From contig DATBLQ010000038.1 in assembly GCA_036555325.1 (NCBI GenBank), forward strand, positions 38,623 to 102,622: a stretch of 64,000 nucleotides of DNA, read 5' to 3'. Source of the DNA: Aestuariivirgaceae bacterium. GTDB taxonomy: Bacteria > Pseudomonadota > Alphaproteobacteria > Rhizobiales > Aestuariivirgaceae. The notes beneath the pieces were generated by a model. It was not told the DNA's origin. It ran no database searches and saw only the letters and a program-made list of their open reading frames with translations. The position numbers and the translations under genes are program-made. The stretch's first letter is position 1, and the number at the start of each line of letters is the position of its first letter. Below are positions 36,231 through 60,649 of this stretch, one piece after another.

Positions 36231-36262
36231 ATGGCCGGACCTCGATCCGGCCATCTTCTTTT
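36231..36262 (+). terminator. Rho-independent terminator
   Basis: ATGGCCGGA-cctcga-TCCGGCCAT followed by CTTCTTTT. A second perfect 9-bp hairpin, GTCATGCGC...GCGCATGAC, lies at 36186-36215. Confidence 0.7.
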
Positions 36263-38631: not shown

Positions 38632-38760
38632 TAGTGGCTCCCCAATAGGGCAACATAAGCTGGATTGGCGCAACGTAAGGGAGGGTTACCAACAAATCAA
38701 GGAAATGGTCCCCTTTGGAATCTCGTGCTATTTGACTGCTCCTTAGGGACTTGCGAGCAG

Positions 38761-46408: not shown

Positions 46409-46427
46409 TGGTATGAAAGGTATACCA
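46409..46427. promoter_or_regulatory. GntR-type operator candidate overlapping the regulator's own start codon
   Basis: TGGTAT-N7-ATACCA inverted repeat with an embedded perfect palindrome GGTATACC (46419-46426). It fits the GT-N-AC core of GntR/FadR operators. Confidence 0.35.
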
Positions 46428-47146
46428 TGACCGCTGTCCGCCGACGCAAGCTTTATGAGGATATCGCCGAACGCGTCGAGCAGCGGATTATCGATGAAGA
46501 GATCGCTCCCGGTGCAAGGTTGCCATCGGAGCGACAGCTGATGCGAGAATTCGGCGTGGGCCGCCCCGCTGTCCGCGAGGCATTGTTCCATCTCAACAGG
46601 ATGGGTCTCGTTGAACTCCGTTCCGGCGAGCGGGCCCGGGTGGCAGAACCAACTCCGAAGGTTGTTTTCGAAACCCTGTCGGGAGCTGCCCGCTATTTTC
46701 TCGCAGCGCCGGGTGGGGTCAAATATTTCCAAAAGGCGCGGACGTTTTTTGAAGTGGGTCTTGCCCGATTTGCCGCGCAGAATGCGACCAAAGCGGAACT
46801 CGAGGATCTGCAAGCCGCTTTGGAAGCGAACCGGCTGTCGATCGGCGACATGCGGAAGTTTGGCGAAACGGATGTGGCCTTCCATTACCAGCTCGCCGTA
46901 ATTCCAAAGAACCCGATTTTCTGCGCGATGCATGCCGCAATCATCGAATGGCTGGTGGAGCAGCGGCTGGCGACCCTAAGCATTCCGGGGCAGAATCGAA
47001 TTGCCTATGAAGCTCATGCCGCAATCTACAAGGCGATCCGCCATGGCGATGCGGACGAAGCGGAGCGGCAGATGCGGGCGCATCTGGAGCAGGTGGCGGA
47101 ACAGTATGCAAAAGTGAAAAGCGGGAAAGCATGGAAGCCTATGTGA
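46427..47146 (+). CDS. GntR-family regulator (FadR/FCD subfamily)
   Basis: wHTH RLPSERQLMREFGVGRPAVREALFHLNRMGLVELRSGERARV plus an FCD domain. Confidence 0.9.
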   Translation: MTAVRRRKLYEDIAERVEQRIIDEEIAPGARLPSERQLMREFGVGRPAVREALFHLNRMGLVELRSGERARVAEPTPKVVFETLSGAARYFLAAPGGVKYFQKARTFFEVGLARFAAQNATKAELEDLQAALEANRLSIGDMRKFGETDVAFHYQLAVIPKNPIFCAMHAAIIEWLVEQRLATLSIPGQNRIAYEAHAAIYKAIRHGDADEAERQMRAHLEQVAEQYAKVKSGKAWKPM

Positions 47147-47445
47147 TCATCGTCGACTTCCAAATTAAACCGGGCAGCAAGGCTCAATTCCGGCAATTGG
47201 TGGACGCCAATGCCCGGGACTCGTGCCGTAATGAGCCGGGTTGTCGGCGGTTCGACGTGCTGGAAGTTCCAGAGGATGCCAACAGGGTTCTGCTCTATGA
47301 AATCTACAATGACCGAGAGGCATTCGAGGCGCATGTGCAAACAGCGCATTTCGCAATTTTCAACAAGGCAAGCGCCCTGCATGTAACCCAGAAGAAGGTC
47401 GTTGCCTGCAATCTCGTATATGAAGGATCGGCGGGAGGCATTTGA
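47131..47445 (+). CDS. Antibiotic-biosynthesis-monooxygenase (ABM) domain protein
   Basis: 104 aa ferredoxin-like fold signature (VIIVDFQIKPG...EPGCRRFDV...LYEIYNDREAFEAHVQTAHF). Confidence 0.8.
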   Translation: MEAYVIIVDFQIKPGSKAQFRQLVDANARDSCRNEPGCRRFDVLEVPEDANRVLLYEIYNDREAFEAHVQTAHFAIFNKASALHVTQKKVVACNLVYEGSAGGI

Positions 47446-47469
47446 TTGTCCATGAGCAGGGAGTGAAAC

Positions 47470-48270
47470 ATGGGGGCTGCAGGTCTAAAGGCGATGACCC
47501 GTACGAGAGATCTCAAACTCGGTCATTTCATCGTGGAGTTCGCAACGCCGGGGATCGGCCACATCATGAAGTCTGCCGGATGCGAGTTTGCGCTTTTCGA
47601 CATGGAGCATTCGGGCTTCGGTTTCGAAACGGTGAAGAGCGCCATCCGCTATTTGGAAGCAGGCGGAGTTGCCCCGATCGTCCGGGTGCCATCCAAGGAA
47701 TATCACCATATCGCTCGCGCCTGCGACATGGGGGCGGAAGGGTTGATGGTGCCTATGGTCAACAGCGCCGCGGAAGCGCGGACGATCGTCGACTGCATGA
47801 AGTACCACCCCCTTGGACGACGCGGGGTGGCGTTGCAGGTGGCGCATGACCGATACCGCGCGGGCGCTGTGGCGGAAAAGCTCGCAAGCGCAAACAAGAC
47901 GACCACGCTTTTCTGCCAAATCGAAACAGCCGACGGTGTAGCCAACGCCGACGCCATTGCGGCGATCGAGGGAGTTGATTGCCTGTGGGTGGGGCATTTC
48001 GACCTCTCGGTATCGCTGGGCATTCCGGGCGAGTTCGCACATCGCAAGTTCAAGTCATCGATTGACAAGGTCATCTCAGCAACCCGCAAGCACAACAAGG
48101 CGCTTGGCCGTCTGGTGCCGACGGTCGACCAGGGAGCGGAATTCTTTGCGCAAGGTTTCGATTTCATCTGTTATTCTGGAGATGTCTGGGTTTTGCACAA
48201 CGCGCTTTCAGACGCCGTCTCTGCCTTGCGGGCGAGGTGCAAACCGAAATTGAAGCGAGAGCGGACGTGA
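47470..48270 (+). CDS. HpcH/HpaI-family 2-keto-3-deoxy-acid aldolase
   Basis: Motifs FALFDMEHSGF, IVRVPS, GLMVPMVNSAAEA and ETADGVANADAIAAIEGVDCLWVGHFDLS. Confidence 0.85.
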   Translation: MGAAGLKAMTRTRDLKLGHFIVEFATPGIGHIMKSAGCEFALFDMEHSGFGFETVKSAIRYLEAGGVAPIVRVPSKEYHHIARACDMGAEGLMVPMVNSAAEARTIVDCMKYHPLGRRGVALQVAHDRYRAGAVAEKLASANKTTTLFCQIETADGVANADAIAAIEGVDCLWVGHFDLSVSLGIPGEFAHRKFKSSIDKVISATRKHNKALGRLVPTVDQGAEFFAQGFDFICYSGDVWVLHNALSDAVSALRARCKPKLKRERT

Positions 48271-49325
48271 TGGACAAGTTTCGCGTGGCCCTTTCAGGAG
48301 ATTTCAAAAAGCCGGACGGATCCCCGACCTTTCCTGATTTCGACTTAGGACCGCTCGCATCCGCGCGTGGTATCGAAATGGCGTTCCTTGAGGACGCCAA
48401 CCCGATCGAAGCTCGGCAAATCGCGGATTTCGATGCGCTGATCCTTCTTGTTCCTCGCTTTGCCCGCGAAAGCATTCATCCCAACGGCCGACTTTCGGTC
48501 GTGGCGCGTTTCGGTGTCGGTTACGATAACGTCGATGTCGGCGCTCTGACCGAGGCGGGCATTCCACTGGTCATCACTCCAGATGGCGTTCGCCGCCCGG
48601 TTGCTGTTTCCATTCTCACGCTGATGCTGGCGCTCACCGGGAAACTGCTGATCAAGGACCGGCTGACCCGCATGGGTCCCGAAGGCTTCAACCAGCGCGC
48701 CAAATTCATGGGTGTGGGGCTGGTCGGCCTCACGCTCGGTTCCGTGGGCATCGGCAATATCGGAGCCGAAATGTTCAGGTTGGCCAAACCGCTGGACATG
48801 AAGTTCATTGCCCACGATCCTTATGCCGATCCGAAAGTGGCGGCGGAGCTCGGGGTGGAACTGGTGGGCTTGAGCGATGTCTTTCGCCGGGCCGACGTCG
48901 TTACTGTCAATTGTCCGCTATCGCCTGAAACGCATCATCTGGTCAACGCCGAACGTCTCGCGCTGATGAAACCCACGGCCTACCTTATCAATACTGCGCG
49001 CGGACCTATCGTCGACCAGAAAGCCTTGACTGCAATACTGAGCGAACGGCGCATAGCAGGAGCGGGTTTGGATGTGCTTGAGGCCGAGCCGCCTTCAGCC
49101 GACGATCCAATATTGAAACTCGACAATGTGATTCTTACACCTCATGCCCTGTGCTGGACCAACCAATGTTTCGCGGGAATCGGTGTGGCGGACGTGAGGG
49201 CGGTGACCGACCTTCAACATGGTCGCGTACCGAACGGCGTGGTCAATCGGGAGGTGCTGAACGATCCGCGTTTTCGCGCGCGGCTTAGCAAATTCAGGGA
49301 GAAGTTTGCGGCTTTGGCACAGTGA
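48270..49325 (+). CDS. D-isomer-specific 2-hydroxyacid dehydrogenase
   Basis: NAD motif GLTLGSVGIGNIGAEM, INTARGPIVD, and catalytic His context LTPHALCWT. ATG 48270 overlaps the upstream TGA. Confidence 0.9.
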   Translation: MDKFRVALSGDFKKPDGSPTFPDFDLGPLASARGIEMAFLEDANPIEARQIADFDALILLVPRFARESIHPNGRLSVVARFGVGYDNVDVGALTEAGIPLVITPDGVRRPVAVSILTLMLALTGKLLIKDRLTRMGPEGFNQRAKFMGVGLVGLTLGSVGIGNIGAEMFRLAKPLDMKFIAHDPYADPKVAAELGVELVGLSDVFRRADVVTVNCPLSPETHHLVNAERLALMKPTAYLINTARGPIVDQKALTAILSERRIAGAGLDVLEAEPPSADDPILKLDNVILTPHALCWTNQCFAGIGVADVRAVTDLQHGRVPNGVVNREVLNDPRFRARLSKFREKFAALAQ

Positions 49326-49382
49326 CAGGCAACGGCCGAAGCGAATGGAAGTGCGTATAATAATTTCAGGGAGGAATGCATC

Positions 49383-51041
49383 ATGAATAGCCGTCAAAGA
49401 CGTGATTTTGAAGCCGGGCTGGCCGCAGATGTCGATGCCTGGCTAAGGGGCAAACCAACTCGCCGTGAGTTCATAAAGAAGTTCGGGCAACTGACAGGCA
49501 TGCTGGCGATCGGCGGGGGTATTCTGCCAGCCTTTACTCAGCATCTGCTTGCTCAAGCGGCTACCGATCTTGCCGATCCGTCGACGCCCTTGGGCCAAGC
49601 GCAAGCGCTGGCGGTCAAGGCATCGACCGAAGGTCCGACGGACGGGTCAGCCTATCGGGCCACTCAGGCGGCCAAGCAATATTCCGGCATTACCATCAAC
49701 ATGACCTACGAGGTGGGTCTGCAGGCTCTCGATCCGCGGAACTTCTCGGGCCCGCTGTGGGAGCAACTCACCGGCATCAAATCGAACGTGGTTGAACTCA
49801 CCAATCCCGATCAATATTCAAAGCCGGTGGCCGAGCACATCGCCGGTTCGGGAGCCTATGACGTGCTTGATGTATCACCAGGCTGGACACCGTCGCTTGC
49901 CGATGGCGGCGTGATAGCACCCCTTGATGACTACATCGCCAAATACATGAACACGGCGGATCTGGAAGACTACCATCCGCTGTATCGCGCGCTCCCCACC
50001 TACAAGGGCAAGGTTTGGGGTTTCTTCGATGATGGCGACATGTTCGCCCTCTATTATCGCAAGGATATCTTCGAGGATGCGAAACTGAAGGAGGCCTATC
50101 AAGCCAAGTTCAGCAAGGCCCTGGAGGTGCCGAAGACGTGGGAAGACTACGCCCAGGTGGCGCAATTCATCACGGACCAGATGGCGCCCAATGTGTATGG
50201 CGCCGGCCATTTCCGCAAAGCCGGCAATCCGGGCAACCAGTTCGATTTTCTGCAGCAGTTCCGGGCAAACAACGGGGAATTCTTCAATAACGAAATGAAA
50301 GCGCAGCTGGCTTCCGACGCGGGCGTGAAAACCCTGCAGAATATGATAGCTGCCAATGCGGCATCGATACCGGGCAACAACGAGCTCGATGCCGTGTCGT
50401 TGTGGGTTGCCTGGCTGCAAGGCAAGGTGGCGATGATCTATTCCTGGCCGCCGACGGGGCGCATGACTGCCGGCTATTCGCAGAGCGACAAGGCGATCAA
50501 CTTCGTTCCGCAGTCGACAATAGCAGACAAGGTCGGCTACGCCGTCGTGCCGGGCAATCCGGAACATGCCGCCGGTTACAACAAAGCGCTCGCGGCAGAT
50601 TCGAGCAATCCCGACGCTGCATTCCTATTCATGCAGTGGGCGACATCGCCGCCGGTGTCGTTGGCCCGTGTCATGTTGCCTTATGCGCTGCGGGATCCCT
50701 ACCGGCTTTCGCATTTCAAGTCGGAGCTCTACGGACAGCTTTTCCCCACCGCGAAAGAGTACCTGCGCAACCTCAATAACTCGGCCAACGTCGGGGTGCT
50801 CGACATGATCATGCCGGGGGCACAAGACTACGGACTGAGTCTCGATCGGATGTGCACGGCGGTATGGGCTGGTGCCGATCCCAAGTCTTCGCTTGAGACA
50901 GCGGCGGCGGAATGGGACGCAACGACCGAGCGTTTGGGCGTTGATTCGCAAAGGGCCTTCTATCAGGAATTCCTGAAGCTTCCGGGGGCGACCGCGGCGA
51001 ACACGGTGGAAAAACTCGGTATGGCCGTCAAGCTCGACTAG
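49383..51041 (+). CDS. ABC transporter substrate-binding protein (family 1 / CUT1-like, unusually long, Tat signal)
   Basis: Twin-arginine leader PTRREFIKKFGQLTGMLAIGGG. 552 aa sugar-type SBP body. Confidence 0.85.
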   Translation: MNSRQRRDFEAGLAADVDAWLRGKPTRREFIKKFGQLTGMLAIGGGILPAFTQHLLAQAATDLADPSTPLGQAQALAVKASTEGPTDGSAYRATQAAKQYSGITINMTYEVGLQALDPRNFSGPLWEQLTGIKSNVVELTNPDQYSKPVAEHIAGSGAYDVLDVSPGWTPSLADGGVIAPLDDYIAKYMNTADLEDYHPLYRALPTYKGKVWGFFDDGDMFALYYRKDIFEDAKLKEAYQAKFSKALEVPKTWEDYAQVAQFITDQMAPNVYGAGHFRKAGNPGNQFDFLQQFRANNGEFFNNEMKAQLASDAGVKTLQNMIAANAASIPGNNELDAVSLWVAWLQGKVAMIYSWPPTGRMTAGYSQSDKAINFVPQSTIADKVGYAVVPGNPEHAAGYNKALAADSSNPDAAFLFMQWATSPPVSLARVMLPYALRDPYRLSHFKSELYGQLFPTAKEYLRNLNNSANVGVLDMIMPGAQDYGLSLDRMCTAVWAGADPKSSLETAAAEWDATTERLGVDSQRAFYQEFLKLPGATAANTVEKLGMAVKLD

Positions 51042-51095
51042 CTAAGCAAGGGGCGGGCCGCATACGGCCCGCCGACCTTTTGAGCAACGGGTGAA

Positions 51096-52040
51096 ATGGC
51101 CAATACCGCACTCCCCAGAAAAATGGCAGCCGCCAACGGAGCGCGGCGGGCGGCGGCGTTTTCGGAATGGAGCGATCGGCATTTCAAATGGCTGCTCGTG
51201 GCGCCCGCCGTAATCCTCATCCTGGCGCTTTCGATCTATCCCTTGATTTTCTCACTGGTTGTTTCGTTCATCAATTATGACTTTCAAATTCCTGGCCATG
51301 CTTTTGTCGGTCTGAAAAACTTTCGCCAAGTGGTTTTCGATCCGGTGGCGCGCTGGTCAATTGTGTTAACGGCAATGCTGGCGGCGGCGAATGTGACCAT
51401 CGAGTTTCTCCTGGGCCTCATCCTGGCGCTTCTCATGGTGAAACACTTCCGCGGCCGCGGCTTGTTCATATCGATCTTCATCATACCGCTGTTCATCAGT
51501 CCGGTTATCGTTGGCCAGGCGTGGGCGCTGCTTCTTCAGCGTCCGTTCGGCCCAACCAACTATATCCTCAGCCAACTCCTCGGTTACGATGTGAAGATCA
51601 GCTGGCTGACGGAAAGCCCATGGCTCTATTTCGCTATCATCGCCGCGGATGTTTGGCAGTGGACGCCTTTCATGTTCGTCATTCTACTTGCCGGCCTGAC
51701 GGCCATTCCGCAAAATCTCTACGAAGCGGCAGAGCTCGACGGGGTGGGCGGGTGGCGCGCATTCTGGGCGATAACAGTACCGCATCTTGCCCCGATGATG
51801 CTGCTGGCAATCACGCTCAGGCTGCTCGACACGACGAAGCTCTTTGACACCATTTTCATCATGACAGGCGGTGGACCGGGCACCAAGACCTATACGGCAT
51901 CCTTCTATCTTTACACGGTAGGTTTCGCCCAATTTCACATTTCGATGGCGACGGCGGGAAGCTGGATTTTTCTCGTTCTCACGCTGATCGTCGTCACGTT
52001 TCTTGTGCGGCGATTGCTGAAGGCGGAGCAAACGGCATGA
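51096..52040 (+). CDS. Carbohydrate ABC transporter permease
   Basis: MalF/UgpA-like, with EAA loop YEAAELDGVGGWRAFWAITVPHLAP. Confidence 0.9.
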   Translation: MANTALPRKMAAANGARRAAAFSEWSDRHFKWLLVAPAVILILALSIYPLIFSLVVSFINYDFQIPGHAFVGLKNFRQVVFDPVARWSIVLTAMLAAANVTIEFLLGLILALLMVKHFRGRGLFISIFIIPLFISPVIVGQAWALLLQRPFGPTNYILSQLLGYDVKISWLTESPWLYFAIIAADVWQWTPFMFVILLAGLTAIPQNLYEAAELDGVGGWRAFWAITVPHLAPMMLLAITLRLLDTTKLFDTIFIMTGGGPGTKTYTASFYLYTVGFAQFHISMATAGSWIFLVLTLIVVTFLVRRLLKAEQTA

Positions 52041-52888
52041 GCGCAGCAGTGACGCGCCAGTTGCGACGACGCCATCGCCCTACCGGGATTGGCCGCTTTC
52101 TGATCCTCGGTCTGTTTGTCCTGTTTGTGCTGGCACCGCTCTACTGGATGTTCATCACTTCGATCAAGCCGAGCGACGACTATCTGGCGGTGCCGCCGGT
52201 ATGGTTTCCCGAGAAACCGACGCTTATCCACTATACCGTTTCGCTATTTGCCTATCGTGGTCTCAAAGGATTGATCAACAGCCTCATTATCTCGCTTGCC
52301 GCAACATTTCTCTCGGCGCTGTTCGGCTCGCTGATGGCATACAGTCTCGCCCGCTTCAATACGGGGGGAAAACACCTCTCATTCTGGGTACTTTCACAGC
52401 GGTTTCTTCCGCCGGTGGCAATCGTGCTGCCGGTATTTTTGATCTATCGCTATGTCAAGCTGCACGACACCCATATTGGGCTGATCATTGCGTACACGGT
52501 CTTCACACTGCCGGTGTCGGTGTGGATGATGTATGCCTATTTTCGCCAGTTGCCGAGATCGATGGAAGATGCGGCACTGGTCGACGGCTGTACGCGCTGG
52601 CAGGCCCTCTGGCGGGTCGCTTTGCCCTTGGCTGCGCCGGGAATTGTTGCCGCAGCCGTATTCGCATTCATTGCGTGTTGGACCGAATTCTTCTTCGCGC
52701 TGGTTCTCACCAGCCGCGATTCCTTTACTCTGCCGACGGTGTTCCGAGCTTTTATCGGCTTTCAAGGAGCCCTGTATGGTGAAGCGAGCGCTTTGGCCAT
52801 AGTCTCGCTTGCTCCATCGATCGCGCTGGGCATCCTCGTTCAGCGCCATCTTGTGCGCGGGCTGACACTCGGTGCGTTGCGGGGATGA
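52037..52888 (+). CDS. Carbohydrate ABC transporter permease
   Basis: MalG/UgpE-like, with EAA loop [27 protein letters not shown] 4-nt overlap with the upstream gene. Confidence 0.9.
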
Positions 52889-52907
52889 ACCTAGCGATGG
52901 CAAATCG

Positions 52908-53999
52908 ATGGCGAACGTAAGCATCAATAAATTGCAAAAGCGCTATGGCGGGGTCGAGGCGCTCAGTGGCATCGATCTGGAAATCGCGGATGGTGAATTC
53001 GCGGTTCTGGTTGGGCCATCGGGTTGCGGCAAGAGCACGCTTTTGCGTACCATCGCGGGGCTCGAGGACATTACCGAAGGTACCATCGCCATCGGCGGCG
53101 AAGTGGTGAACAACATGCGGCCGCGGGACCGCGACGTCGCCATGGTGTTCCAGGACTACGCCCTCTATCCGCACATGACAGTCTACAACAACATCGGTTT
53201 TGGCCTTATGGCGCGGAAATTTCCGAAAGCGGATGTCGAAAAAAGGGTGAAGGCCGCAGCAAAAATGCTCGGCATCGAGGGACTGCTTAGCCGTTACCCC
53301 AGGCAGCTCTCCGGAGGCCAGCGCCAGAGAGTCGCCATCGGACGCGCAATCGTTCGCAATCCGCAGATATTTCTGTTCGATGAGCCGCTAAGCAATCTCG
53401 ATGCTCAATTGCGCGATGAAATGCGCAGCGAGATCAAGCGCCTGCATCAGGAGTTGGGCACCACGATGATCTATGTGACTCATGATCAGATCGAGGCGAT
53501 GACGCTTGCCGACAGGATCGTGCTCCTGCGCGACGGCAAGATTGAGCAGGCGGGCACGCCGCTTGAGCTTTACGAGCGACCGGAGACGCATTTCGTCGCC
53601 GGCTTCCTGGGCTCGCCGCAGATGAACTTCATTGCCGCGAAACTGTCGGGCTCCAAGGGCAAGTTCAGCATCGAGCTCGACGGCGGAGAGACCCTGCCGA
53701 TCGTCAAGGACATGTCGACCCCGGCGGAAACACGCGACATCATCGTAGGCTTGCGACCGCAGCACATCACGCGTGCACACGGCACCACCATTCGCAATGG
53801 CCACGCATACGTGAGCGCAAAGGTTGAACTCGTACAGCCGACAGGATCGCGCTCCTACATCACCTTTCCCTTGGGCGGCACCTCGGTTGTCGCGGAGCTC
53901 GATCCGCATGACGTGCACCGCCCGGGAGAGGCTATCGAACTGGATTTCAATATGAACCGGGCGATACTCATCGATCCGAATACGGAACGGGTTATTTAA
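52908..53999 (+). CDS. Carbohydrate ABC transporter ATP-binding protein (MalK/UgpC type)
   Basis: Walker [36 protein letters not shown] and a C-terminal TOBE/regulatory domain. ATG 52908 gives [11 protein letters not shown]. Confidence 0.9.
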
Positions 54000-54012
54000 G
54001 TGAGGAAACGCA

Positions 54013-55983
54013 ATGGCAGCAAGGAAGCCCAAACGTGCCATCAAGCTGTTCGGAACAGAAATAACGGATAGCAAGGGCAAGGAACTTCGCGCCGGTCCGA
54101 TTTCGGTCATGCTCGACAACGGTGCGCTGCGCTATATCAAACTTTCCGATGTCGAAGTGCTGCGCGCCATTGCTTTTCTCGTGCGCGATGAAAATTGGGG
54201 CACCTACACTCCGGAAATCACTAACCAGAAAATAAAGCAGTCGCGAGAAGGCTTCACCGTGTCGTATGACGCCAGGTGCGGCGAAGCGGAAAAAGCACTC
54301 AAGTATCATGCGGAAGTCTCGGCGTCGGCGGATGGAAAGCTGTCGTTTGTCGCCAATGCGACGCCGGAAAGCGATTTCCGCACCAACCGGACAGGGTTCA
54401 TCGTTCTGCATCCGCTAAAGGGGGTTGCGGGCTGTCCGGTTGAAATCGAACATGTGGATGGAAAGCGGGCGAAAGACAGATTTCCAGCCATCATCGATCC
54501 AGTGCAACCCTTCATGAATGTTAGGGCAATGCGGCACAAGGTTATGCCGGGCGTTTTCGCAAGTTGCCGAATGGAGGGAGATGCGTTCGAAACCGAGGAT
54601 CACCGCAACTGGACGGATGCCTCATTCAAAACCTATGTCCGGCCCTTAGAGCTGCCCTGGCCTTATACATTGCGCGGAGGCCAGTCCTTTACGCAATCCG
54701 TGACGCTAACCTTCTCTGGAAAACTTCCCAAAGGAAAAGCGGCGGGACGGGCGAAAGCGGCAACGATAACCCTTGGCCGCGGTGCGGGAAGACTGCCAGA
54801 CATTGCTGTTGCCGTTTCCGCCGCGTTGGCAAAGGATGCAGTGGCGCAGGCGCAGCTTCTGAAGCAAGCAAAGCCAAGCCGGCTCCTCTGCGAAATTGAC
54901 GCGAGAGAGGCGAACGTCGCTGAATTGGCCAAGACTTACCGTGAGCTCTCGGCTCTGACCGGGGCTTCTGTGACGTTGGAAATCATTTTGCCAGGCGTAG
55001 GCGACCCGGCTTCCGAGATCAAACCGGTGGGAGAGGCGGTCAGAGCAAGCGGTCTCAAACCCGAAGCTGTCGTTGTGTCTCCCGCCGTCGATCTCAAGGC
55101 CATATTGCCCGGCAGCGAAGGCTCGGGAGCAGCGCCATTGGATCAGATTTATCGGGCCGCACGCGCTGCGTTTCCCAATGCCAAGCTCGGCGGAGGCATG
55201 TTCTCGTTCTTCACCGAGCTCAACCGCAAGCGTCCGCCGGCGGAGCTGCTCGATTTCGTCACCCACACCACGTGTCCAATCGTTCACGCCGCCGACGACA
55301 TTTCAGTCATGGAGACGCATGAAGCATTGCCGTATGTAGTGCAATCGACACGGGCGATCATAGGGAAGGACAAACCCTATCATGTCGGCCCAAGCACCAT
55401 TGCGGCACGCTTCAATCCGTACGGGCCGTCAACGGCAAGCAATCCACATAATGGCCGCGTCTGCCTTGCGGACTCCGACCCGAGGCACAGGGGACTTTAC
55501 GGTGCGGCCTGGACCCTCGGTTATGTGACAGCCCTTGCCTACAGCGGCATCGATCAAGTGAGCGCCAGCGCAGCAACCGGCCCGAGGGGTCTTATTCCTC
55601 GGCGATCCGACCGTGGCCAGCCTTATTTCGACTCCTTGCGCGGAAGCGCAGTATTTCCGCTTTATCATGTGATCGCTGGGCTGGCGCGGGCACGCGGGGC
55701 CAAACTGACCGCCGTCAAAAATTCCGATGGCGGTATCGCTGCACTGGCCTATGGGTCTGGTAAAACCCGGACGCTCTGGCTGGCGAACATGTCGGGAGAC
55801 AAGACGAAAATCAAAATAAGCGGCTTCGATGGTCGCGCGCACCTGCATCTGCTCGATGAATCCTCGTTTGAGGCCTCCACAACGGACCCGGCATTCTTCG
55901 ACAAGGGCGGCAAGGTGCTGAAACGGGTTTCAACCATCGAGCTTGGACCTTATGCAGTTGCCAGGCTTAGTGCGGAGGCTTGA
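54013..55983 (+). CDS. Conserved-looking hypothetical protein, 656 aa, cytoplasmic, two-domain. Last gene of the sugar-type ABC operon.
   Basis: GAGGAA precedes the ATG, 13 nt after the ATPase stop. There is no signal peptide or TM segment. A beta-rich N-terminal region of ~230 aa, an Ala/Lys/Gly linker, and a C-terminal region of ~400 aa. I cannot assign a family. Confidence 0.75.
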   Translation: MAARKPKRAIKLFGTEITDSKGKELRAGPISVMLDNGALRYIKLSDVEVLRAIAFLVRDENWGTYTPEITNQKIKQSREGFTVSYDARCGEAEKALKYHAEVSASADGKLSFVANATPESDFRTNRTGFIVLHPLKGVAGCPVEIEHVDGKRAKDRFPAIIDPVQPFMNVRAMRHKVMPGVFASCRMEGDAFETEDHRNWTDASFKTYVRPLELPWPYTLRGGQSFTQSVTLTFSGKLPKGKAAGRAKAATITLGRGAGRLPDIAVAVSAALAKDAVAQAQLLKQAKPSRLLCEIDAREANVAELAKTYRELSALTGASVTLEIILPGVGDPASEIKPVGEAVRASGLKPEAVVVSPAVDLKAILPGSEGSGAAPLDQIYRAARAAFPNAKLGGGMFSFFTELNRKRPPAELLDFVTHTTCPIVHAADDISVMETHEALPYVVQSTRAIIGKDKPYHVGPSTIAARFNPYGPSTASNPHNGRVCLADSDPRHRGLYGAAWTLGYVTALAYSGIDQVSASAATGPRGLIPRRSDRGQPYFDSLRGSAVFPLYHVIAGLARARGAKLTAVKNSDGGIAALAYGSGKTRTLWLANMSGDKTKIKISGFDGRAHLHLLDESSFEASTTDPAFFDKGGKVLKRVSTIELGPYAVARLSAEA

Positions 55984-55996
55984 AAATAAATGCTCG

Positions 55997-56024
55997 CTGG
56001 CTTCGGCGTGATCGCTGAAGCCAG
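55997..56024 (+). terminator. Hairpin after the 656-aa gene (weak terminator candidate)
   Basis: CTGGCTTC-ggcgtgatcgct-GAAGCCAG, with further inner pairing possible. No T-tract. Confidence 0.3.
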
Positions 56025-56152
56025 TCAAACTTGACCCACCAGAGCATCGCTGATTAAATCGACTTGGCCGGATGACCGCGCAAACGGCGGTTTCGAAGTA
56101 GAACCAAAAACCCGGCGTATCTAGAGTGGAACACCTAGCACAGGGCACAATC

Positions 56153-57304
56153 ATGAGCGACTCGAAGACTTTTCTTGACGCTGCAGTTGCACTTTCACGA
56201 ACGTCATCGCTTTCTCGTCGGCAGCTTGTTGCCGGCGCTGCCGTGCTGGGTGGCGTTGCCACGCTGGGACTAGGGCCGCGGCCTGCAAAGGCGGCAACGA
56301 CCATGACGTGGATGGGCTGGCAAGGTTATGAGACACCGATCAAGGCCGGCTCCTTTTTGAAGGACAACGACATCGACTTTCAGCCCACCTTCATCTCCTC
56401 AAACGAGGAGATTATCACCAAGCTGCAGGCGGGAGGGGTTGGCAAAACCGACCTCATCACCATGTACTTCGGCTATCTGCCGCTGATGGCCGAAGGCAAC
56501 TTGCTCGAACCCCTCGATCCAGCGCGCATCGAGCAGTTTGGCGATCTCATTCCGCAGTTCACCGCTCAGGAAGTCATTCGCAAGGACGGCAAGCTGTATG
56601 GAGTGCCATGGAACTGGGGATCGTTGCCGTTGATGTACGACCCCGCCCAGGTCGCCGCGCCCCCCGAGAGCTGGCTTGACCTGATGAAACCGGAATTCAA
56701 AGGCAAGGTTGCGATGGTCGATGACCCCTTGGGCAATCTGCTGATATGGGGAACGGTCGTTACCGGAAAGCCGATGGGCACGCTCCTGACACGGGAAGAG
56801 CTGAAGAAGGTCATCGATACGCTGATCGACCTCAAGAAGAACCAGGCGCGAGCGTTCTTTGCTTCCTATGGCGACATGGCGGATGCCTTTGCCCGCAACG
56901 AAGTATCGGCAAGTGCCATCGGCTGGGAGGCGGTAGCAGTTTGGACTCAAGGTAAGGGAAAGACCATCAAGTACACGATACCGAAGGAGGGCACCGGCAT
57001 GTTCATGGACTGCTTGTGTATTCCCAAGGATTGCCCGCACGTGGACCTGACCTACAAGATGATCAATCACATCATTTCACCGGAACCGCAGAAGATATTT
57101 GCAGTCGAGCAGAGCGCCGGCATCACCAACTTGAAAGCAGTGCCATTGCTCCCGGCCGAACTCGCGCAGTCCTACAACTATTCCGATCTCGACAACTTCA
57201 TGAAGAAAGCCAGGCTGCAACCCGTCCCCCCGACGGAGTATGACGGCACGATCGCGACCTACGATGATTTTCTGCAGGAGTATGCTCGGCTGCAGAAGGC
57301 CTGA
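56153..57304 (+). CDS. ABC transporter substrate-binding protein, PotD/PotF family, Tat signal
   Basis: Leader SLSRRQLVAGAAVLGGVATLGLGPRPAKA, then a PotD-like body. Confidence 0.85.
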   Translation: MSDSKTFLDAAVALSRTSSLSRRQLVAGAAVLGGVATLGLGPRPAKAATTMTWMGWQGYETPIKAGSFLKDNDIDFQPTFISSNEEIITKLQAGGVGKTDLITMYFGYLPLMAEGNLLEPLDPARIEQFGDLIPQFTAQEVIRKDGKLYGVPWNWGSLPLMYDPAQVAAPPESWLDLMKPEFKGKVAMVDDPLGNLLIWGTVVTGKPMGTLLTREELKKVIDTLIDLKKNQARAFFASYGDMADAFARNEVSASAIGWEAVAVWTQGKGKTIKYTIPKEGTGMFMDCLCIPKDCPHVDLTYKMINHIISPEPQKIFAVEQSAGITNLKAVPLLPAELAQSYNYSDLDNFMKKARLQPVPPTEYDGTIATYDDFLQEYARLQKA

Positions 57305-57313
57305 CTTGTTGCT

Positions 57314-58174
57314 GTGCGGATCGTCGCTCGTTCCAAAAGGGGAGCGCCATCGCACGTGCTGCCGGTGGTGCCGGCGGTGCTGGCATGGATCTTTCTCTTT
57401 GCCGGACCGTTAGCCTATTTCCTGGTGATCAGCTTCTGGTCGGTGAAAGCGCGCATCATGCGTCCCGACTTCACGGCCAAGAATTACGTGGCAGCGATAA
57501 CCGAGTATGGCGATGTTTTGGTGCACACCCTGGTGATAGGGCTGGTCATCGCAACGGTGACAACTATCCTCGCTTACGCCTTTGCTTTTGCAATACGCTT
57601 TCGCGCCGGCCGTTTTGGCGATGCGCTGCTGTTGCTGACGCTGATAACGCTCTTTGGCGGGTATCTGGTGAAAATCTATGCCTGGAAAAGCATCCTGGGC
57701 CGCGATGGCATCATCAATGGAGTTCTAAGGGGACTGGGAGTAATCGAAGAGCCGCTTTCGTTCTTTATCTACAGTGCGAATGGAGTGATCATCACGCTCA
57801 CTTATTTCCTGCTGCCGTTCGCCGTATTGCCGATCTACGGCAGCATGCGGGCTATCCCCGACAGCTTGATCGAAGCGGCGCGCGATCTCGGGGCGGGAGC
57901 GTTCCGTGCCTCTTGCGACATTGTCCTGCCGATGAGCGAGCGCGGCCTGGCAGCCGCATTCCTGCTAACCTTCCTGATATCGGTGGGGGATTACGTCACT
58001 CCGCGCTATGTCGGCGGGGGGACCTCGATGATGGGTCACTTCATCGAAACGCAGTTTTCATTCGGCTTCAACTGGCCAATGGGAAGCGCCATGGCGTTTA
58101 CGCTCATGGCCGCATCGCTTCTCATGTTCGCAGCCTGCCGGTTCATGTTCCGGCAAGTTATTCAGGGCAGATAA
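57314..58174 (+). CDS. ABC transporter permease (PotB-like)
   Basis: GTG start 9 nt after the SBP stop. EAA loop IEAARDLGAGAFRASCDIVLP. Confidence 0.85.
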   Translation: MRIVARSKRGAPSHVLPVVPAVLAWIFLFAGPLAYFLVISFWSVKARIMRPDFTAKNYVAAITEYGDVLVHTLVIGLVIATVTTILAYAFAFAIRFRAGRFGDALLLLTLITLFGGYLVKIYAWKSILGRDGIINGVLRGLGVIEEPLSFFIYSANGVIITLTYFLLPFAVLPIYGSMRAIPDSLIEAARDLGAGAFRASCDIVLPMSERGLAAAFLLTFLISVGDYVTPRYVGGGTSMMGHFIETQFSFGFNWPMGSAMAFTLMAASLLMFAACRFMFRQVIQGR

Positions 58175-58953
58175 TGGGGCGAGTGGCGCAAGCGTCGTGG
58201 GCATGCTTCATAGGCCTCATCGTAGTGTTCCTCACCTTCCCACTCTTCCTAGTCGTCCTGTTCAGCTTCAACGTATCGGCGCTAACGAGTTTTCCGCTGA
58301 CAGGCTTCACGCTCGGGTGGTATCAACGTCTCCTCGAAAACGAAAGTTTCTGGCCAGCACTGCGAGCCAGCCTGACAGTGGGGATGGTGGTGTCGGTACT
58401 TTCCGTTACCATCGGAACGCTCGCCGCCCTCGGCTTGGCTCGCATGAGACAACGGTGGGTGATGATCGTCATGACAGCGCTCATGGCGCCAATGATGCTG
58501 CCTGCGCTCATCATCGGTGTTGCGCTGCTTTCCTATTTCGTTCGCTTTCTGGGTGTGCCGCTGGGGCTTCCTACCGTTATTCTCAGTCATCTGGTGATCG
58601 TCGAGCCGTTTGTGATCGCAATCGTATATTCGCGGCTCGTGTCGTTCGACTGGTCGCTGGTGGAATCGGCGCAAGACCTCGGTGCTTCTGCAGTTCGCAC
58701 CTTCTTCACGATAACGCTGCCGATCATTCAGCCGACGATCGTGGGGGCTGCTCTCGTGGCTCTCTCCCTTTCGCTCGACGATTTCGTGATAACCTTTTTC
58801 ACCATCGGCAGCGGCAATACGTTGCCGACGATGGTTTGGGGGATGGTGCGCACATCACTCGATCCGTCGATCAATGCGATCGCGACTCTCTTGATATTGT
58901 TAAGCATTGGATCTACGGCACTGGCGCTCTCGATCAGCAAGTATCGCGGCTAG
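58174..58953 (+). CDS. ABC transporter permease (PotC-like)
   Basis: ATG 58174 overlaps the upstream TAA. EAA loop VESAQDLGASAVRTFFTITLPIIQP. Track ORF 57385..58953 is this gene plus a spurious out-of-frame extension across the previous permease. Confidence 0.85.
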   Translation: MGRVAQASWACFIGLIVVFLTFPLFLVVLFSFNVSALTSFPLTGFTLGWYQRLLENESFWPALRASLTVGMVVSVLSVTIGTLAALGLARMRQRWVMIVMTALMAPMMLPALIIGVALLSYFVRFLGVPLGLPTVILSHLVIVEPFVIAIVYSRLVSFDWSLVESAQDLGASAVRTFFTITLPIIQPTIVGAALVALSLSLDDFVITFFTIGSGNTLPTMVWGMVRTSLDPSINAIATLLILLSIGSTALALSISKYRG

Positions 58954-58954
58954 T

Positions 58955-59722
58955 ATGATTCGATTCGACTATACCGGCAAAACAGTGCTGGTGACGGGCG
59001 CGGGACGGGGGCTAGGCTTCGCCATTGCGCAGGCTTTCGCTAAAGCGAGGGCTACCGTGATTCTCAACGATCGGACGCCGGAGAAAGTGGAGGTTGCTAT
59101 TCGCCGGCTCGGCGACAGCGGGATGGTGATTGGAGCACCTGCTGATCTGTCGAGCCCGCAAGGCAGCGCGCAAGCGATCGCTCCGGCTTTGGGCAAGGGC
59201 TCGCTCGATGTGCTCGTAAACAATGCGGCCGTCAATATCGAGCGATCGATCGAAAACACGAGTGATGCTCATTGGGATGAACATATCGGAGTGGTGCTCG
59301 GCGCTCCGTTCTTTACCGCGAAAGCTGCGTTGCCGCTTCTGATCCAATCACAGGGATGTATCATCAATATAGCATCCGAGCTCGGTCTTCATGCAATCGC
59401 AAACAATGTTGCCTATGTTTCGGCCAAGCACGGTTTGTTGGCTCTTACTCGGGCGCTCGCCATCGAACTTGCTCCACACAAGGTAAGGGTCAATGCTCTG
59501 TGTCCGGGAACCATGGATACCGAGCTGATGCAGGAGTGTGCCGCCGACAGCGGCGACCCAGAGGCGTACTACAGAGATTTCCGGGCTTATCATCCCTTGA
59601 ACAGACTGGCACGGCCTGAAGAAGTGGCGGAGTTCGTGCTCTGCCTAGCATCGCCCGCTGCGGCCTTCATGACGGGCGCGGCCGTCGTTCTGGATGGCGG
59701 CAGCACGGCTGGGCGAATGTGA
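58955..59722 (+). CDS. Short-chain dehydrogenase/reductase
   Basis: Motifs TGAGRGLGFAIA, NNAA and YVSAKHG (YxxxK). Starts 1 nt after the permease stop. Confidence 0.9.
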   Translation: MIRFDYTGKTVLVTGAGRGLGFAIAQAFAKARATVILNDRTPEKVEVAIRRLGDSGMVIGAPADLSSPQGSAQAIAPALGKGSLDVLVNNAAVNIERSIENTSDAHWDEHIGVVLGAPFFTAKAALPLLIQSQGCIINIASELGLHAIANNVAYVSAKHGLLALTRALAIELAPHKVRVNALCPGTMDTELMQECAADSGDPEAYYRDFRAYHPLNRLARPEEVAEFVLCLASPAAAFMTGAAVVLDGGSTAGRM

Positions 59723-60484
59723 ATGGCAGACAAGTTTGCAAATCGGCGAATTTTGATTACCGGTTCCACACGCGGACTGGGCTACGCTGCGGCGCAGGAG
59801 TTTCTGGAGCAGGGCGCAGAGGTTGTCATTCATGGCAAGGATGAGTCGCGGGTAAGAAAAGTTACATCGGAGTTGGCAAACGCTTATCGCGCAAGGGCGC
59901 GTGGTTTTGCCGCCGACCTTAACAGCCGGACTGAACAGGATCGCCTTGCGGAGTTCGCCGGCGAGCTCGATGTGCTGGTGAATTGCGCCGGTGTCTATGA
60001 AGAAAGATTTTGTGCCGACGCCACGGAAAATCACTGGAAAGACACCATCGAAATCAACCTCACCGCTGCGTGGCGGCTTGCGCGAGCGCTGTCTCCGGGG
60101 CTGAAGGCGAGGAACGGCGTCATCGTGAATATCGGTTCCGATTCGGCGCTCTTGGGATTTGCCGGCTCGGTTGCCTATTGCGCTTCCAAGGGGGCGTTGG
60201 TGGGGCTTACGCGAGCGTTGGCAGTCGAGCTTGCGCCGCACGTCCGAGCGCTGTGCGTCTGCCCCGGTCCGGTGGACACCGACATGATGCGCAACAGCGT
60301 TGCCGCTCAACCCGACCCAGTTGCCGCCCGTAGGCAGTGGGAGTCCTTTCCGATTCTGAAGCGCGTTGCAACTCCGAAGGAGATTGCAGAGGCAATCCTG
60401 TTTGCCGCATCGCCCACGTGTAGTTTCCAGACGGGCAGCCTGATTGTCGTCGATGGTGGAACAACTGCAGGTCGTATCGTCTAG
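59723..60484 (+). CDS. Short-chain dehydrogenase/reductase (paralogue of the preceding gene)
   Basis: Motifs TGSTRGLGYAAA, NCAG and YCASKGA (YxxxK). The ATG directly abuts the upstream TGA. Confidence 0.9.
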   Translation: MADKFANRRILITGSTRGLGYAAAQEFLEQGAEVVIHGKDESRVRKVTSELANAYRARARGFAADLNSRTEQDRLAEFAGELDVLVNCAGVYEERFCADATENHWKDTIEINLTAAWRLARALSPGLKARNGVIVNIGSDSALLGFAGSVAYCASKGALVGLTRALAVELAPHVRALCVCPGPVDTDMMRNSVAAQPDPVAARRQWESFPILKRVATPKEIAEAILFAASPTCSFQTGSLIVVDGGTTAGRIV

Positions 60485-60649
60485 GAGAACCCCTAGGCCT
60501 CTTTTGCATTCCGCGCAGCCCTCAATTCATCGCAACCCGGCGCGCCACTGGCGCATTGCCACAGCGGTGGCAGGTGGCACCATGAGGAGGGGGCATGTCA
60601 TATTGAGCCAAGGGCCTTCTCACTCCGGGCATGGATGCGTTGCAATTTC

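Follow-up and report, generated by a model that had tools for sequence, protein, structure and literature searches.

The 656 amino acid (aa) protein encoded by the last gene of a nine-gene operon (positions 46427-55983) in the window, i.e. the whole 64,000 nucleotide stretch of Aestuariivirgaceae bacterium DNA analysed here, is a member of the known ApnL (D-apionate lactonase) family and not of a new family, as judged from sequence comparison. The locus is probably a variant operon for D-apiose/D-apionate utilisation, in which opening of the lactone would be followed, we infer, by oxidation at C2 and class II aldol cleavage. The best explanation of the operon as a whole is a self-contained, regulator-controlled unit for the uptake and catabolism of a small branched or short-chain sugar, and its substrate is most probably D-apiose or the oxidised form, D-apiono-1,4-lactone/D-apionate. 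D-Apiose, a pentose of plant cell walls, is characteristic of pectin (rhamnogalacturonan II and apiogalacturonan) as well as of numerous plant glycosides. Oxidative pathways for D-apiose, including ApnL, were reportedly first worked out by Carter et al. 2018 (Nat Chem Biol 14:696), as summarised in PMC13753588.

Identification of the 656-aa protein

The protein matched the NCBIfam model for D-apionate lactonase, NF049900, over its full length (E 2.2e-207, 690.3 bits, residues 9-602 on profile positions 2-593 of 595). Its homologues number more than 4,600, and the precomputed domains PF25837, PF25838 and PF25839 are present on all of the best 120 of these as well as on the protein's own cluster; some homologues have been named D-apionolactonase by JGI. 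The local Pfam-A library lacks these three models, and its failure to match the protein even at E 10 is an artefact of the library. A sequence search of the PDB returned no solved homologue, with E values of at least 1. In an earlier note, written from the sequence alone, this protein could not be assigned and was proposed to be a new enzyme family, a proposal that a confident match to a characterised family was expected to overturn; NF049900 is such a match. The note had further suggested that a missing upstream step (hydrolase, lactonase, dehydratase or isomerase) resides in the protein, and of this suggestion the lactonase-type hydrolytic step stands, whereas the new family does not.

Three canonical ApnLs (Sinorhizobium meliloti, Rhizobium leguminosarum and Roseibium) are homologous to the window protein over the full length and share its three-part architecture. 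Sixty-four of the 78 positions that are invariant in the clade of the window protein are identical in all three. These common residues include R58, D59, H133, H175, E193, E195, D196, R198 and K206, as well as E323, E402, K406, H425, D428, D429 and R491, and they cover all conserved His/Asp/Glu/Arg/Lys/Asn clusters, in the N-terminal domain and the barrel alike. Because of this shared conservation, the chemistry of lactone hydrolysis is very probably the same as in canonical ApnLs. To our knowledge, lactone hydrolysis is the sole activity assigned to the ApnL family. Like canonical ApnL, the protein is cytoplasmic, is encoded by a single-copy gene and closes a sugar-import operon with a NanR-type GntR regulator.

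An AlphaFold2 model built on a 52-sequence alignment (predicted local distance difference test, pLDDT, 88; predicted template modelling score, pTM, 0.90) contains an N-terminal domain of some 235 aa that is rich in beta structure, a Lys/Ala/Gly linker modelled with lower confidence (approximately residues 236-250) and an alpha/beta C-terminal part. This agrees with the beta-rich N-terminal part, linker and large C-terminal part described in the earlier note, and the peptide motifs quoted there were found in the translation. In the fold check with Foldseek that had been proposed, the N-terminal beta-sandwich resembles galactose mutarotase, and the C-terminal part is a (beta/alpha)8 barrel plus beta-sandwich like those of glycoside hydrolase (GH) families GH30, GH79 and GH86 (E 5e-16 to 1e-13, target-normalised template modelling score 0.6). 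A mutarotase-like N-terminal domain is also found in several large glycosidases. The likeness to GH30, GH79 and GH86 is one of structure only; the 656-aa protein shows no sequence similarity to them, and no conserved GH-A catalytic glutamate pair is evident in it. Read by eye from the alignment and the model, invariant E402 follows strand 4 of the barrel, whereas strand 7 has no invariant acidic residue after it.

A maximum-likelihood tree of 99 sequences places the three canonical ApnLs outside a 95-row clade (support 99) that contains the window protein. All members of this clade that were scored against NF049900 reached 545-690 bits, every one below the cut-off of the model, and those of them linked to a CUT1 transporter reached 580-690 bits; canonical ApnLs reached 832 bits (S. 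meliloti) and 935 bits (one Mesorhizobium protein).

Gene content of the operon

The operon and two dehydrogenase genes downstream of it comprise the following features:

46427-47146, + strand: GntR/FCD transcriptional regulator, NanR subfamily (Pfam GntR and FCD); first gene of the operon
47131-47445, + strand: ABM-fold protein, 104 aa (Pfam ABM, 75 bits)
47470-48270, + strand: HpcH/HpaI-family class II (metal-dependent) 2-oxoacid aldolase (Pfam HpcH_HpaI, 121.6 bits)
48237-49325, + strand: D-isomer-specific 2-hydroxyacid dehydrogenase, 2HADH (Pfam 2-Hacid_dh_C, 187 bits; second domain, 45 bits)
49383-51041, + strand: CUT1 solute-binding protein (SBP), 552 aa, "type A" (Pfam SBP_bac_1; twin-arginine motif)
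51096-52040, + strand: ABC permease 1 (Pfam BPD_transp_1; gene order kept in related loci)
52037-52888, + strand: ABC permease 2 (Pfam BPD_transp_1; 4-nt overlap with permease 1)
52872-53999, + strand: MalK/UgpC-type ABC ATPase (Pfam ABC_tran, OB_MalK and TOBE_2)
54013-55983, + strand: ApnL-family sugar 1,4-lactonase, 656 aa, non-canonical CUT1-linked clade (NCBIfam NF049900)
58907-59722 and 59723-60484, + strand: two short-chain dehydrogenases/reductases (SDRs; Pfam adh_short), 3 kb downstream of the operon

According to the list of open reading frames (ORFs), the nine genes are separated by gaps or overlaps of at most 57 nt, and the lactonase gene starts 13 nt past the ATPase stop. All nine had been reported in the earlier note as co-directional, and they are present on the + strand at the coordinates given there; its family calls for the regulator, ABM protein, aldolase, 2HADH, SBP, permeases and ATPase were each matched by Pfam. 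The upstream flank (thiamin pyrophosphokinase, a lipid A acyltransferase-like gene and an EpmA-like gene) is unrelated, as is the downstream flank (a polyamine/iron-type SBP with a fused permease, the two SDRs and LigD). Promoter and terminator scans gave chance-level results and were uninformative on the operon boundaries.

Conservation of the operon in related genomes

Eighty related genome loci were compared (loci are labelled L and genomes G, with G000 for the genome of the window). The order SBP-permease-permease-ATPase-lactonase was kept wherever the contig was long enough, so in most of the 80 loci the 656-aa protein co-occurs with this transporter, a co-occurrence whose absence the earlier note had named as grounds for refuting its reading. 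The HpcH aldolase and 2HADH lie within 12 kb in about half of them. Contexts were counted in 56 loci of at least 17 kb, excluding the three canonical plasmid loci:

CUT1 with HpcH and/or 2HADH: 26 of 56 loci
CUT1 with HpcH and/or 2HADH and an OtnK-type kinase: 2 of 56 loci
CUT1 with ApnO/RuBisCO-like protein (RLP): 2 of 56 loci
HpcH/2HADH and ApnO/RLP together: 1 of 56 loci
CUT1 only: 11 of 56 loci
None of these contexts: 11 of 56 loci
Other combinations: 3 of 56 loci

The ApnL family was present in 13 genomes of an even sample of 401 from the same class, G000 included, and HpcH and 2HADH are adjacent to the lactonase gene in 8 of the 12 besides G000. The complete nine-gene operon, in the same order, also occurs on Mesorhizobium ciceri plasmids, beside repA and with unrelated genes around it. 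A Bradyrhizobium sp. CB82 plasmid has the same order between unrelated flanks, with an unnamed 87-aa ORF at the position of the ABM gene. Since the operon keeps its order on plasmids amid unrelated genes, it behaves as a self-contained, mobile module.

In L002 and L006, the nearest relatives, a bona fide 3-oxo-tetronate kinase is encoded directly after the lactonase gene (590-612 bits, cut-off 350; L002:6649-7911 and L006:11966-13225), and in L046 and L055 the lactonase gene is followed by OtnK and OtnI. At this place the window has only a 142-nt spacer (55984-56125) after the lactonase stop, and the SBP gene that comes next is 87% identical to that of L002.

Two further neighbours were seen in betaproteobacterial loci. 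An MhpD/HpaH-like 2-oxo-enoate hydratase gene lies divergently upstream of the CUT1 SBP gene in 14 of them (L012, L013, L016, L029, L031, L035 and L072 among them), and an LldD-like dehydrogenase, which is flavin mononucleotide (FMN)-dependent and acts on 2-hydroxyacids, follows the lactonase gene in three that lack 2HADH (L018, L035 and L053). Both are consistent with a 2-oxo-acid intermediate, because both act on 2-hydroxy or 4-hydroxy-2-oxo acids.

Links to D-apiose and D-apionate

On pSymB of S. meliloti, ApnL is encoded directly after ApsD, a Gfo/Idh/MocA dehydrogenase, and the cluster also includes a ribose-type SBP and ApnO, the latter annotated as a "phosphogluconate dehydrogenase C-terminal domain" protein. 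The canonical set is complete in R. leguminosarum (pR132501) and Roseibium: a NanR-type regulator, the RuBisCO-like OiaX, a DUF1537 kinase, ApnO, a CUT2 transporter, ApsD and ApnL.

Several members of the CUT1-linked clade adjoin genes of the same pathway. In L036, the genes for the CUT1 transporter and a lactonase 52% identical to that of the window precede those for ApnO (71% identity with the S. meliloti protein), an RLP and a DUF1537 kinase that passes the cut-off for 3-oxo-isoapionate kinase, OiaK (758.7 bits vs 700); the context of L058 is similar. An operon in a Bauldia metagenome-assembled genome (L070) has the order GntR-ABM-RLP-OiaK-ApnO-HpcH-2HADH, with GntR, ABM, HpcH and 2HADH proteins 50-71% identical to those of the window. 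In L100 and L101 an ApsD orthologue lies beside HpcH-2HADH-CUT1-lactonase; these proteins share 53-57% identity with canonical ApsDs, compared with 62-69% among the canonical ApsDs themselves. Four genomes (G401, G402, G403 and G405) possess ApnO, and their sole ApnL-family gene is of the non-canonical clade. Within the maximum-likelihood tree, members with an ApnO context branch from among those with an HpcH/2HADH context.

The genome of the window, which is 99.6% complete, was searched by tblastn with canonical queries, and no ApnO, DUF1537 kinase (OiaK/OtnK), RLP or ApsD orthologue was found; NF042436 also had no match in G000. Neither ApnO nor an OiaK above cut-off was detected in any of 12 ApnL-family-positive genomes (G000 and 11 of the class sample, G209 being left out), the ApnO search having been validated with positive controls. 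HpcH and 2HADH lie beside the lactonase gene in nine of these 12. With neither ApnO nor an above-cut-off OiaK in the 12, the known downstream routes cannot run there, and the HpcH/2HADH pair is the obvious candidate for a replacement of the ApnO/OiaK/RLP route.

Transporter

All parts of a CUT1 importer are present: an SBP_bac_1 protein, a pair of BPD_transp_1 permeases and an ATPase of the MalK/UgpC type that carries a regulatory domain at its C-terminus. In the SBP, a twin-arginine motif (TRREFIKKF) precedes a hydrophobic stretch and AQA, so the unusually long Tat-exported (twin-arginine translocation) binding protein of 552 aa that the earlier note described is confirmed; its solved relatives are only distant (E 3e-9). 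The ATPase scored 470 bits against the NCBIfam UgpC subfamily (cut-off 432), and it is 57-71% identical in almost all related loci, where it is encoded directly upstream of the lactonase gene.

The SBP is 78-79% identical to the SBPs of the Mesorhizobium and Bauldia operons and 40-47% identical to the majority "type B" SBPs. When L003, L060, L064 and L096 were compared, the SBP and both permeases were 77-84% identical to the Mesorhizobium/Bauldia "type A" cassette and 41-47% identical to the sister locus L003, whereas the regulator, ABM protein, aldolase, 2HADH, ATPase and lactonase of the window are 63-83% identical to those of L003. This difference implies that, as far as identities can tell, the transporter cassette was swapped inside an otherwise orthologous (mosaic) operon, and the swap suggests that types A and B may be equivalent. 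Since the SBPs beside ApnO/OiaK/RLP are 82-92% identical to SBPs beside HpcH/2HADH, and the former contexts are nested among the latter in the tree, the imported ligand is probably the same in both.

A second CUT1 system (SBP 41% identical) was observed at the end of another contig of G000 (C60:55608-59176), divergent from a CUT2-type ABC system and an SDR. It was rejected as a part of the present system, as it has no lactonase partner and the assembly contains no second lactonase.

Regulator, ABM protein, aldolase and dehydrogenase

The regulator scored 279 bits against the NCBIfam NanR subfamily model (cut-off 260) and is by far the best homologue in G000 (37%, E 1e-45) of the NanR-type regulators of the R. 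leguminosarum and Roseibium apiose clusters. Its orthologue in the Bauldia operon with ApnO, OiaK and RLP is 60% identical and likewise encoded by the first gene.

The ABM protein matched the NCBIfam model for LsrG weakly (E 3e-11), and its PDB relatives include LsrG (3qmq, 2gff). Orthologues with 51-63% identity occupy the same position in L003, L005, L006, L060, L064, L070, L096 and L099. An LsrG-like keto-isomerase or a mutarotase-like helper are candidate roles, both of which are speculative.

The closest solved relatives of the aldolase are GarL (1dxe), HpaI and YfaU. In the alignment to 1dxe, the residues at the catalytic and metal-binding His, Arg, Glu and Asp of GarL, which we take to be His50, Arg75, Glu153 and Asp179, are identical. 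The fold and catalytic residues are thus those of the HpcH/HpaI class II pyruvate aldolases (GarL, HpaI, YfaU/RhmA and the hydroxyketoacid aldolase SwHKA), and the 4-hydroxy-2-oxo acid motif of their substrates fits the expected product of the neighbouring 2HADH. The window aldolase differs in being only distantly similar to characterised members (best phmmer E 4e-32 to 3e-24) and in lacking a partner dehydratase in its operon, for which reason its substrate is probably not a 3-deoxy acid. Aldolases linked to related loci are 43-83% identical to it, compared with 30% or less for the paralogues in G000, so by these identities they form a dedicated orthologous group.

The 2HADH is closest to the solved phosphoglycerate dehydrogenase and glyoxylate/hydroxypyruvate reductases; its GxGxxG motif and catalytic Arg/Glu/His are conserved in alignments to 1wwk and 6bii, and locus-linked orthologues are 43-80% identical. 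Its translation probably begins with the ATG at 48270, which is residue 12 of the ORF as read from its GTG; alignments to PDB homologues begin only at about residue 59. With their catalytic residues conserved, the aldolase and the 2HADH both look intact.

Proposed pathway and comparison with known systems

In the proposed pathway, the sugar would be imported by the Tat-exported SBP, the two permeases and the MalK-type ATPase, and converted to the 1,4-lactone by a dehydrogenase encoded outside the operon (an ApsD orthologue in some relatives; here perhaps one of the two downstream SDRs or an unlinked enzyme). The ApnL-family enzyme would open the lactone to D-apionate. As a 2-hydroxy acid of D-(2R) configuration, D-apionate can be oxidised at its C2 hydroxyl by a D-specific 2HADH, and the expected 4-hydroxy-2-oxo acid, 3,4-dihydroxy-3-(hydroxymethyl)-2-oxobutanoate, would carry the motif that class II HpcH aldolases cleave. 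Retro-aldol cleavage by the HpcH aldolase would then yield formaldehyde and 2-oxo-tetronate. A second aldol cleavage could convert 2-oxo-tetronate to hydroxypyruvate, and reduction of the latter to D-glycerate by the same 2HADH is conceivable because its solved relatives include glyoxylate/hydroxypyruvate reductases. The ABM protein might isomerise the keto-acid intermediate (2-oxo- to 3-oxo-tetronate) in the manner of LsrG, or act as a mutarotase, and the GntR/FCD protein would repress the operon until an intermediate binds. In L002, L006, L046 and L055, 2-oxo-tetronate would enter the known tetronate pathway via OtnK (with OtnI), and the scheme would in this way explain the 3-oxo-tetronate kinase after the lactonase gene in L002 and L006 and the OtnK plus OtnI in L046 and L055.

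The HpcH family includes YfaU, an aldolase that couples formaldehyde reversibly with 2-oxoacids to form 3-substituted 4-hydroxy-2-oxoacids (PMC7611260). The earlier note had taken the aldolase and the dehydrogenase to imply a 2-keto-3-deoxy acid intermediate. A dehydratase-dependent 2-keto-3-deoxy pathway was rejected, the dehydratase being neither present in the operon nor conserved in relatives, and a 2-oxo-4-hydroxy acid made directly by the 2HADH fits better. Pantolactone-type and other non-sugar lactones were dropped as substrates owing to the links to ApsD, ApnO and OiaK.

Compared with the oxidative D-apiose routes 1-3 (ApsD, ApnL, ApnO, OiaK and the RuBisCO-like OiaC/OiaT or OiaX), the first hydrolytic step is the same and the sugar is probably the same, with clade-mates of the window lactonase adjoining ApnO/OiaK/RLP and having near-identical SBPs. 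All steps after D-apionate differ, the window having the HpcH aldolase, 2HADH and ABM protein in place of ApnO, the DUF1537 kinase and RLP. The locus also differs from canonical ApnL loci in its transporter, which is CUT1 (SBP_bac_1) and not the CUT2 ribose type, and in having no adjacent ApsD. The C4 tetronate pathway (LtnD/DenD, OtnI, OtnK, OtnC) is similar in that the 2-hydroxyl of a short acid sugar is oxidised to a 2-oxo acid, and genuine OtnK (and OtnI) follow the lactonase gene in the nearest relatives. However, the window and G000 have no DUF1537 kinase, the dehydrogenase is a 2HADH and not of the DenD/LtnD type, and the place of OtnC, a decarboxylase of the class II aldolase fold, is taken by an HpcH aldolase.

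Adjacent DenD-like (44% identical) and OtnI-like (36%) genes were observed elsewhere in G000 (contig C1:129627-131401), in a genome without a DUF1537 kinase. They may represent an incomplete or non-phosphorylative tetronate route.

The complete scheme would be a fifth D-apiose route, without a kinase or a RuBisCO-like protein, comprising C2 oxidation of apionate, formaldehyde-releasing HpcH cleavage and a new CUT1 apiose transporter, with 2-oxo-tetronate passing to OtnI/OtnK in relatives and to hydroxypyruvate and D-glycerate here. At this level of detail the proposal is tentative, and rather doubtful.

Conflicting observations and alternative explanations

A number of observations weigh against a D-apiose/D-apionate operon. 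The 690.3 bits of the 656-aa protein are below the curated equivalog cut-off of 750 bits for NF049900, and the protein is only 42% identical to canonical ApnLs. The type A cassette is only 41-47% identical to the type B systems linked to ApnO, and because the SBP and permeases of the window are of this divergent type, the identity of the ligand is less certain at this locus. In G404 (Mesorhizobium sp. M7A) a canonical ApnL (935 bits, near ApnO) coexists with one of the CUT1/HpcH-linked type (629 bits), the two being encoded at C11:443992-445764 and C1:212384-214168, and their presence in one genome could mean different substrates. The 3-oxo-tetronate kinase after the lactonase gene in L002 and L006 would also fit an unbranched C4 substrate, and ApnO is reported to take D-erythronate and D-ribonate too (PMC13753588). 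YfaU is poor with C3-branched 2-oxoacids (PMC7611260), and a catabolic route that releases formaldehyde is unusual. Finally, there is no sugar 1-dehydrogenase in the operon, and its plasmid-borne copies lack one as well. The nearest NCBIfam models of the two SDRs at 58907-60484 include glucose 1-dehydrogenase and aldose dehydrogenase, all below cut-offs, and synteny of the two genes was seen only in L003, a close relative. A search across the loci for a conserved group of SDR orthologues, which might supply the missing apiose dehydrogenase, gave none present in more than two loci at 50% identity or above, so the two downstream SDRs remain weak candidates for the sugar 1-dehydrogenase and their membership in the system is uncertain.

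Part of this evidence would suit an operon for an unbranched aldono-1,4-lactone (D-erythrono- or L-threono-1,4-lactone, or a pentonolactone such as D-ribonolactone), with the ApnL-like enzyme acting as a tetrono- or pentono-lactonase. The 2HADH would then form 2-oxo-tetronate, the ABM protein or OtnI a 3-oxo acid, and the HpcH aldolase would cleave a 2-oxo-4-hydroxy acid or replace the decarboxylase. The kinases in L002 and L006, OtnK and OtnI in L046 and L055, the sub-threshold NF049900 score, the paired paralogues in Mesorhizobium and the substrate range of ApnO are all favourable to it, as is a DenD-type D-erythronate dehydrogenase encoded after the ApnL-like gene in Paroceanicella (by annotation) and, by 72% similarity, in L098. 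Yet an OiaK above its own cut-off and RLPs adjoin clade members, ApsD orthologues occur in L100 and L101, and the SBPs are near-identical between the ApnO and HpcH/2HADH contexts. Moreover, without a DUF1537 kinase G000 cannot operate the tetronate kinase route, and free tetroses are rare nutrients. An unbranched substrate is regarded as unlikely, although it is a serious rival.

It is also conceivable that the HpcH, 2HADH and ABM proteins do not act downstream of the lactonase and instead handle another metabolite (glyoxylate/hydroxypyruvate or another 2-oxo acid), the lactonase product leaving by an unlinked route. The Bauldia operon contains both ApnO/OiaK/RLP and HpcH/2HADH, so the two sets are not strictly exclusive; they could act in sequence or on by-products, e.g. 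glycolate from an OiaT-type RLP, and the glyoxylate/hydroxypyruvate reductases among the solved relatives of the 2HADH would be in keeping with such a role. Against this, the 12 genomes searched would be left with no known route for the lactonase product, as they lack ApnO and an above-cut-off OiaK, and G000 also lacks RLP and any DUF1537 kinase. The plasmid-borne nine-gene operons hold only these enzymes, and in the class sample the HpcH/2HADH pair is more conserved (55-69% identity) than the lactonase (39-45%). A separate role of the three proteins thus has little probability.

That the 656-aa protein is a glycoside hydrolase for a glycoside or disaccharide imported by an oligosaccharide-type CUT1 transporter is very improbable: the Foldseek neighbours, the frequent transport of oligosaccharides by CUT1 systems and the lack of a 1-dehydrogenase in the operon would agree with it, but the conserved polar residues are those of canonical ApnLs, which are encoded directly after the lactone-making ApsD, Pfam and PDB sequence searches gave no GH family membership, the clan GH-A nucleophile site after strand 7 appears to have no invariant acidic residue, and the neighbourhood encodes no sugar kinase or isomerase to process a hexose or pentose after its release.

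Relation to published work and significance

According to a 2026 paper, bacterial apiose breakdown has not been further characterised since 2018, and for routes 2 and 3 that paper mentions only lactonase-plus-reductase contexts (PMC13753588). Literature searches on apionate lactonase and on apionate with aldolase found no published description of an aldolase-based apionate route or of the operon variant of the window. The enzyme family is thus known, and the aldolase/dehydrogenase ending and the transporter type of this apiose-type lactone operon are undescribed.

In the genomes examined, the module of CUT1 transporter, ApnL-type lactonase, HpcH and 2HADH was encountered more often than the gene sets already published. 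Soil, freshwater and rhizobial Alpha- and Betaproteobacteria commonly carry it, and it also occurs on symbiosis-related plasmids. If the alternative apionate route through C2 oxidation is true, the new activities would be an apionate 2-dehydrogenase and a 2-oxoacid aldolase that acts on a quaternary centre and releases formaldehyde. Annotation would be fixed for thousands of "hypothetical proteins", and microbes that use pectin-derived carbon could be better predicted. The aldolase could also serve in the biocatalytic synthesis of branched 2-oxo acids.

Other features of the window

Between the operon and the two SDR genes, positions 56126-58953 encode an SBP_bac_8/SBP_bac_6-type binding protein and a 522-aa fused double permease, without an adjacent ATPase gene. 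The LigD gene (60635-63160) comes after the SDR genes. On the - strand, positions 36262-38673 encode an 802-aa fusion of DUF1989 to a glycine-cleavage T-protein-like aminomethyltransferase (GCV_T and GCV_T_C), which adjoins an ABC transporter.

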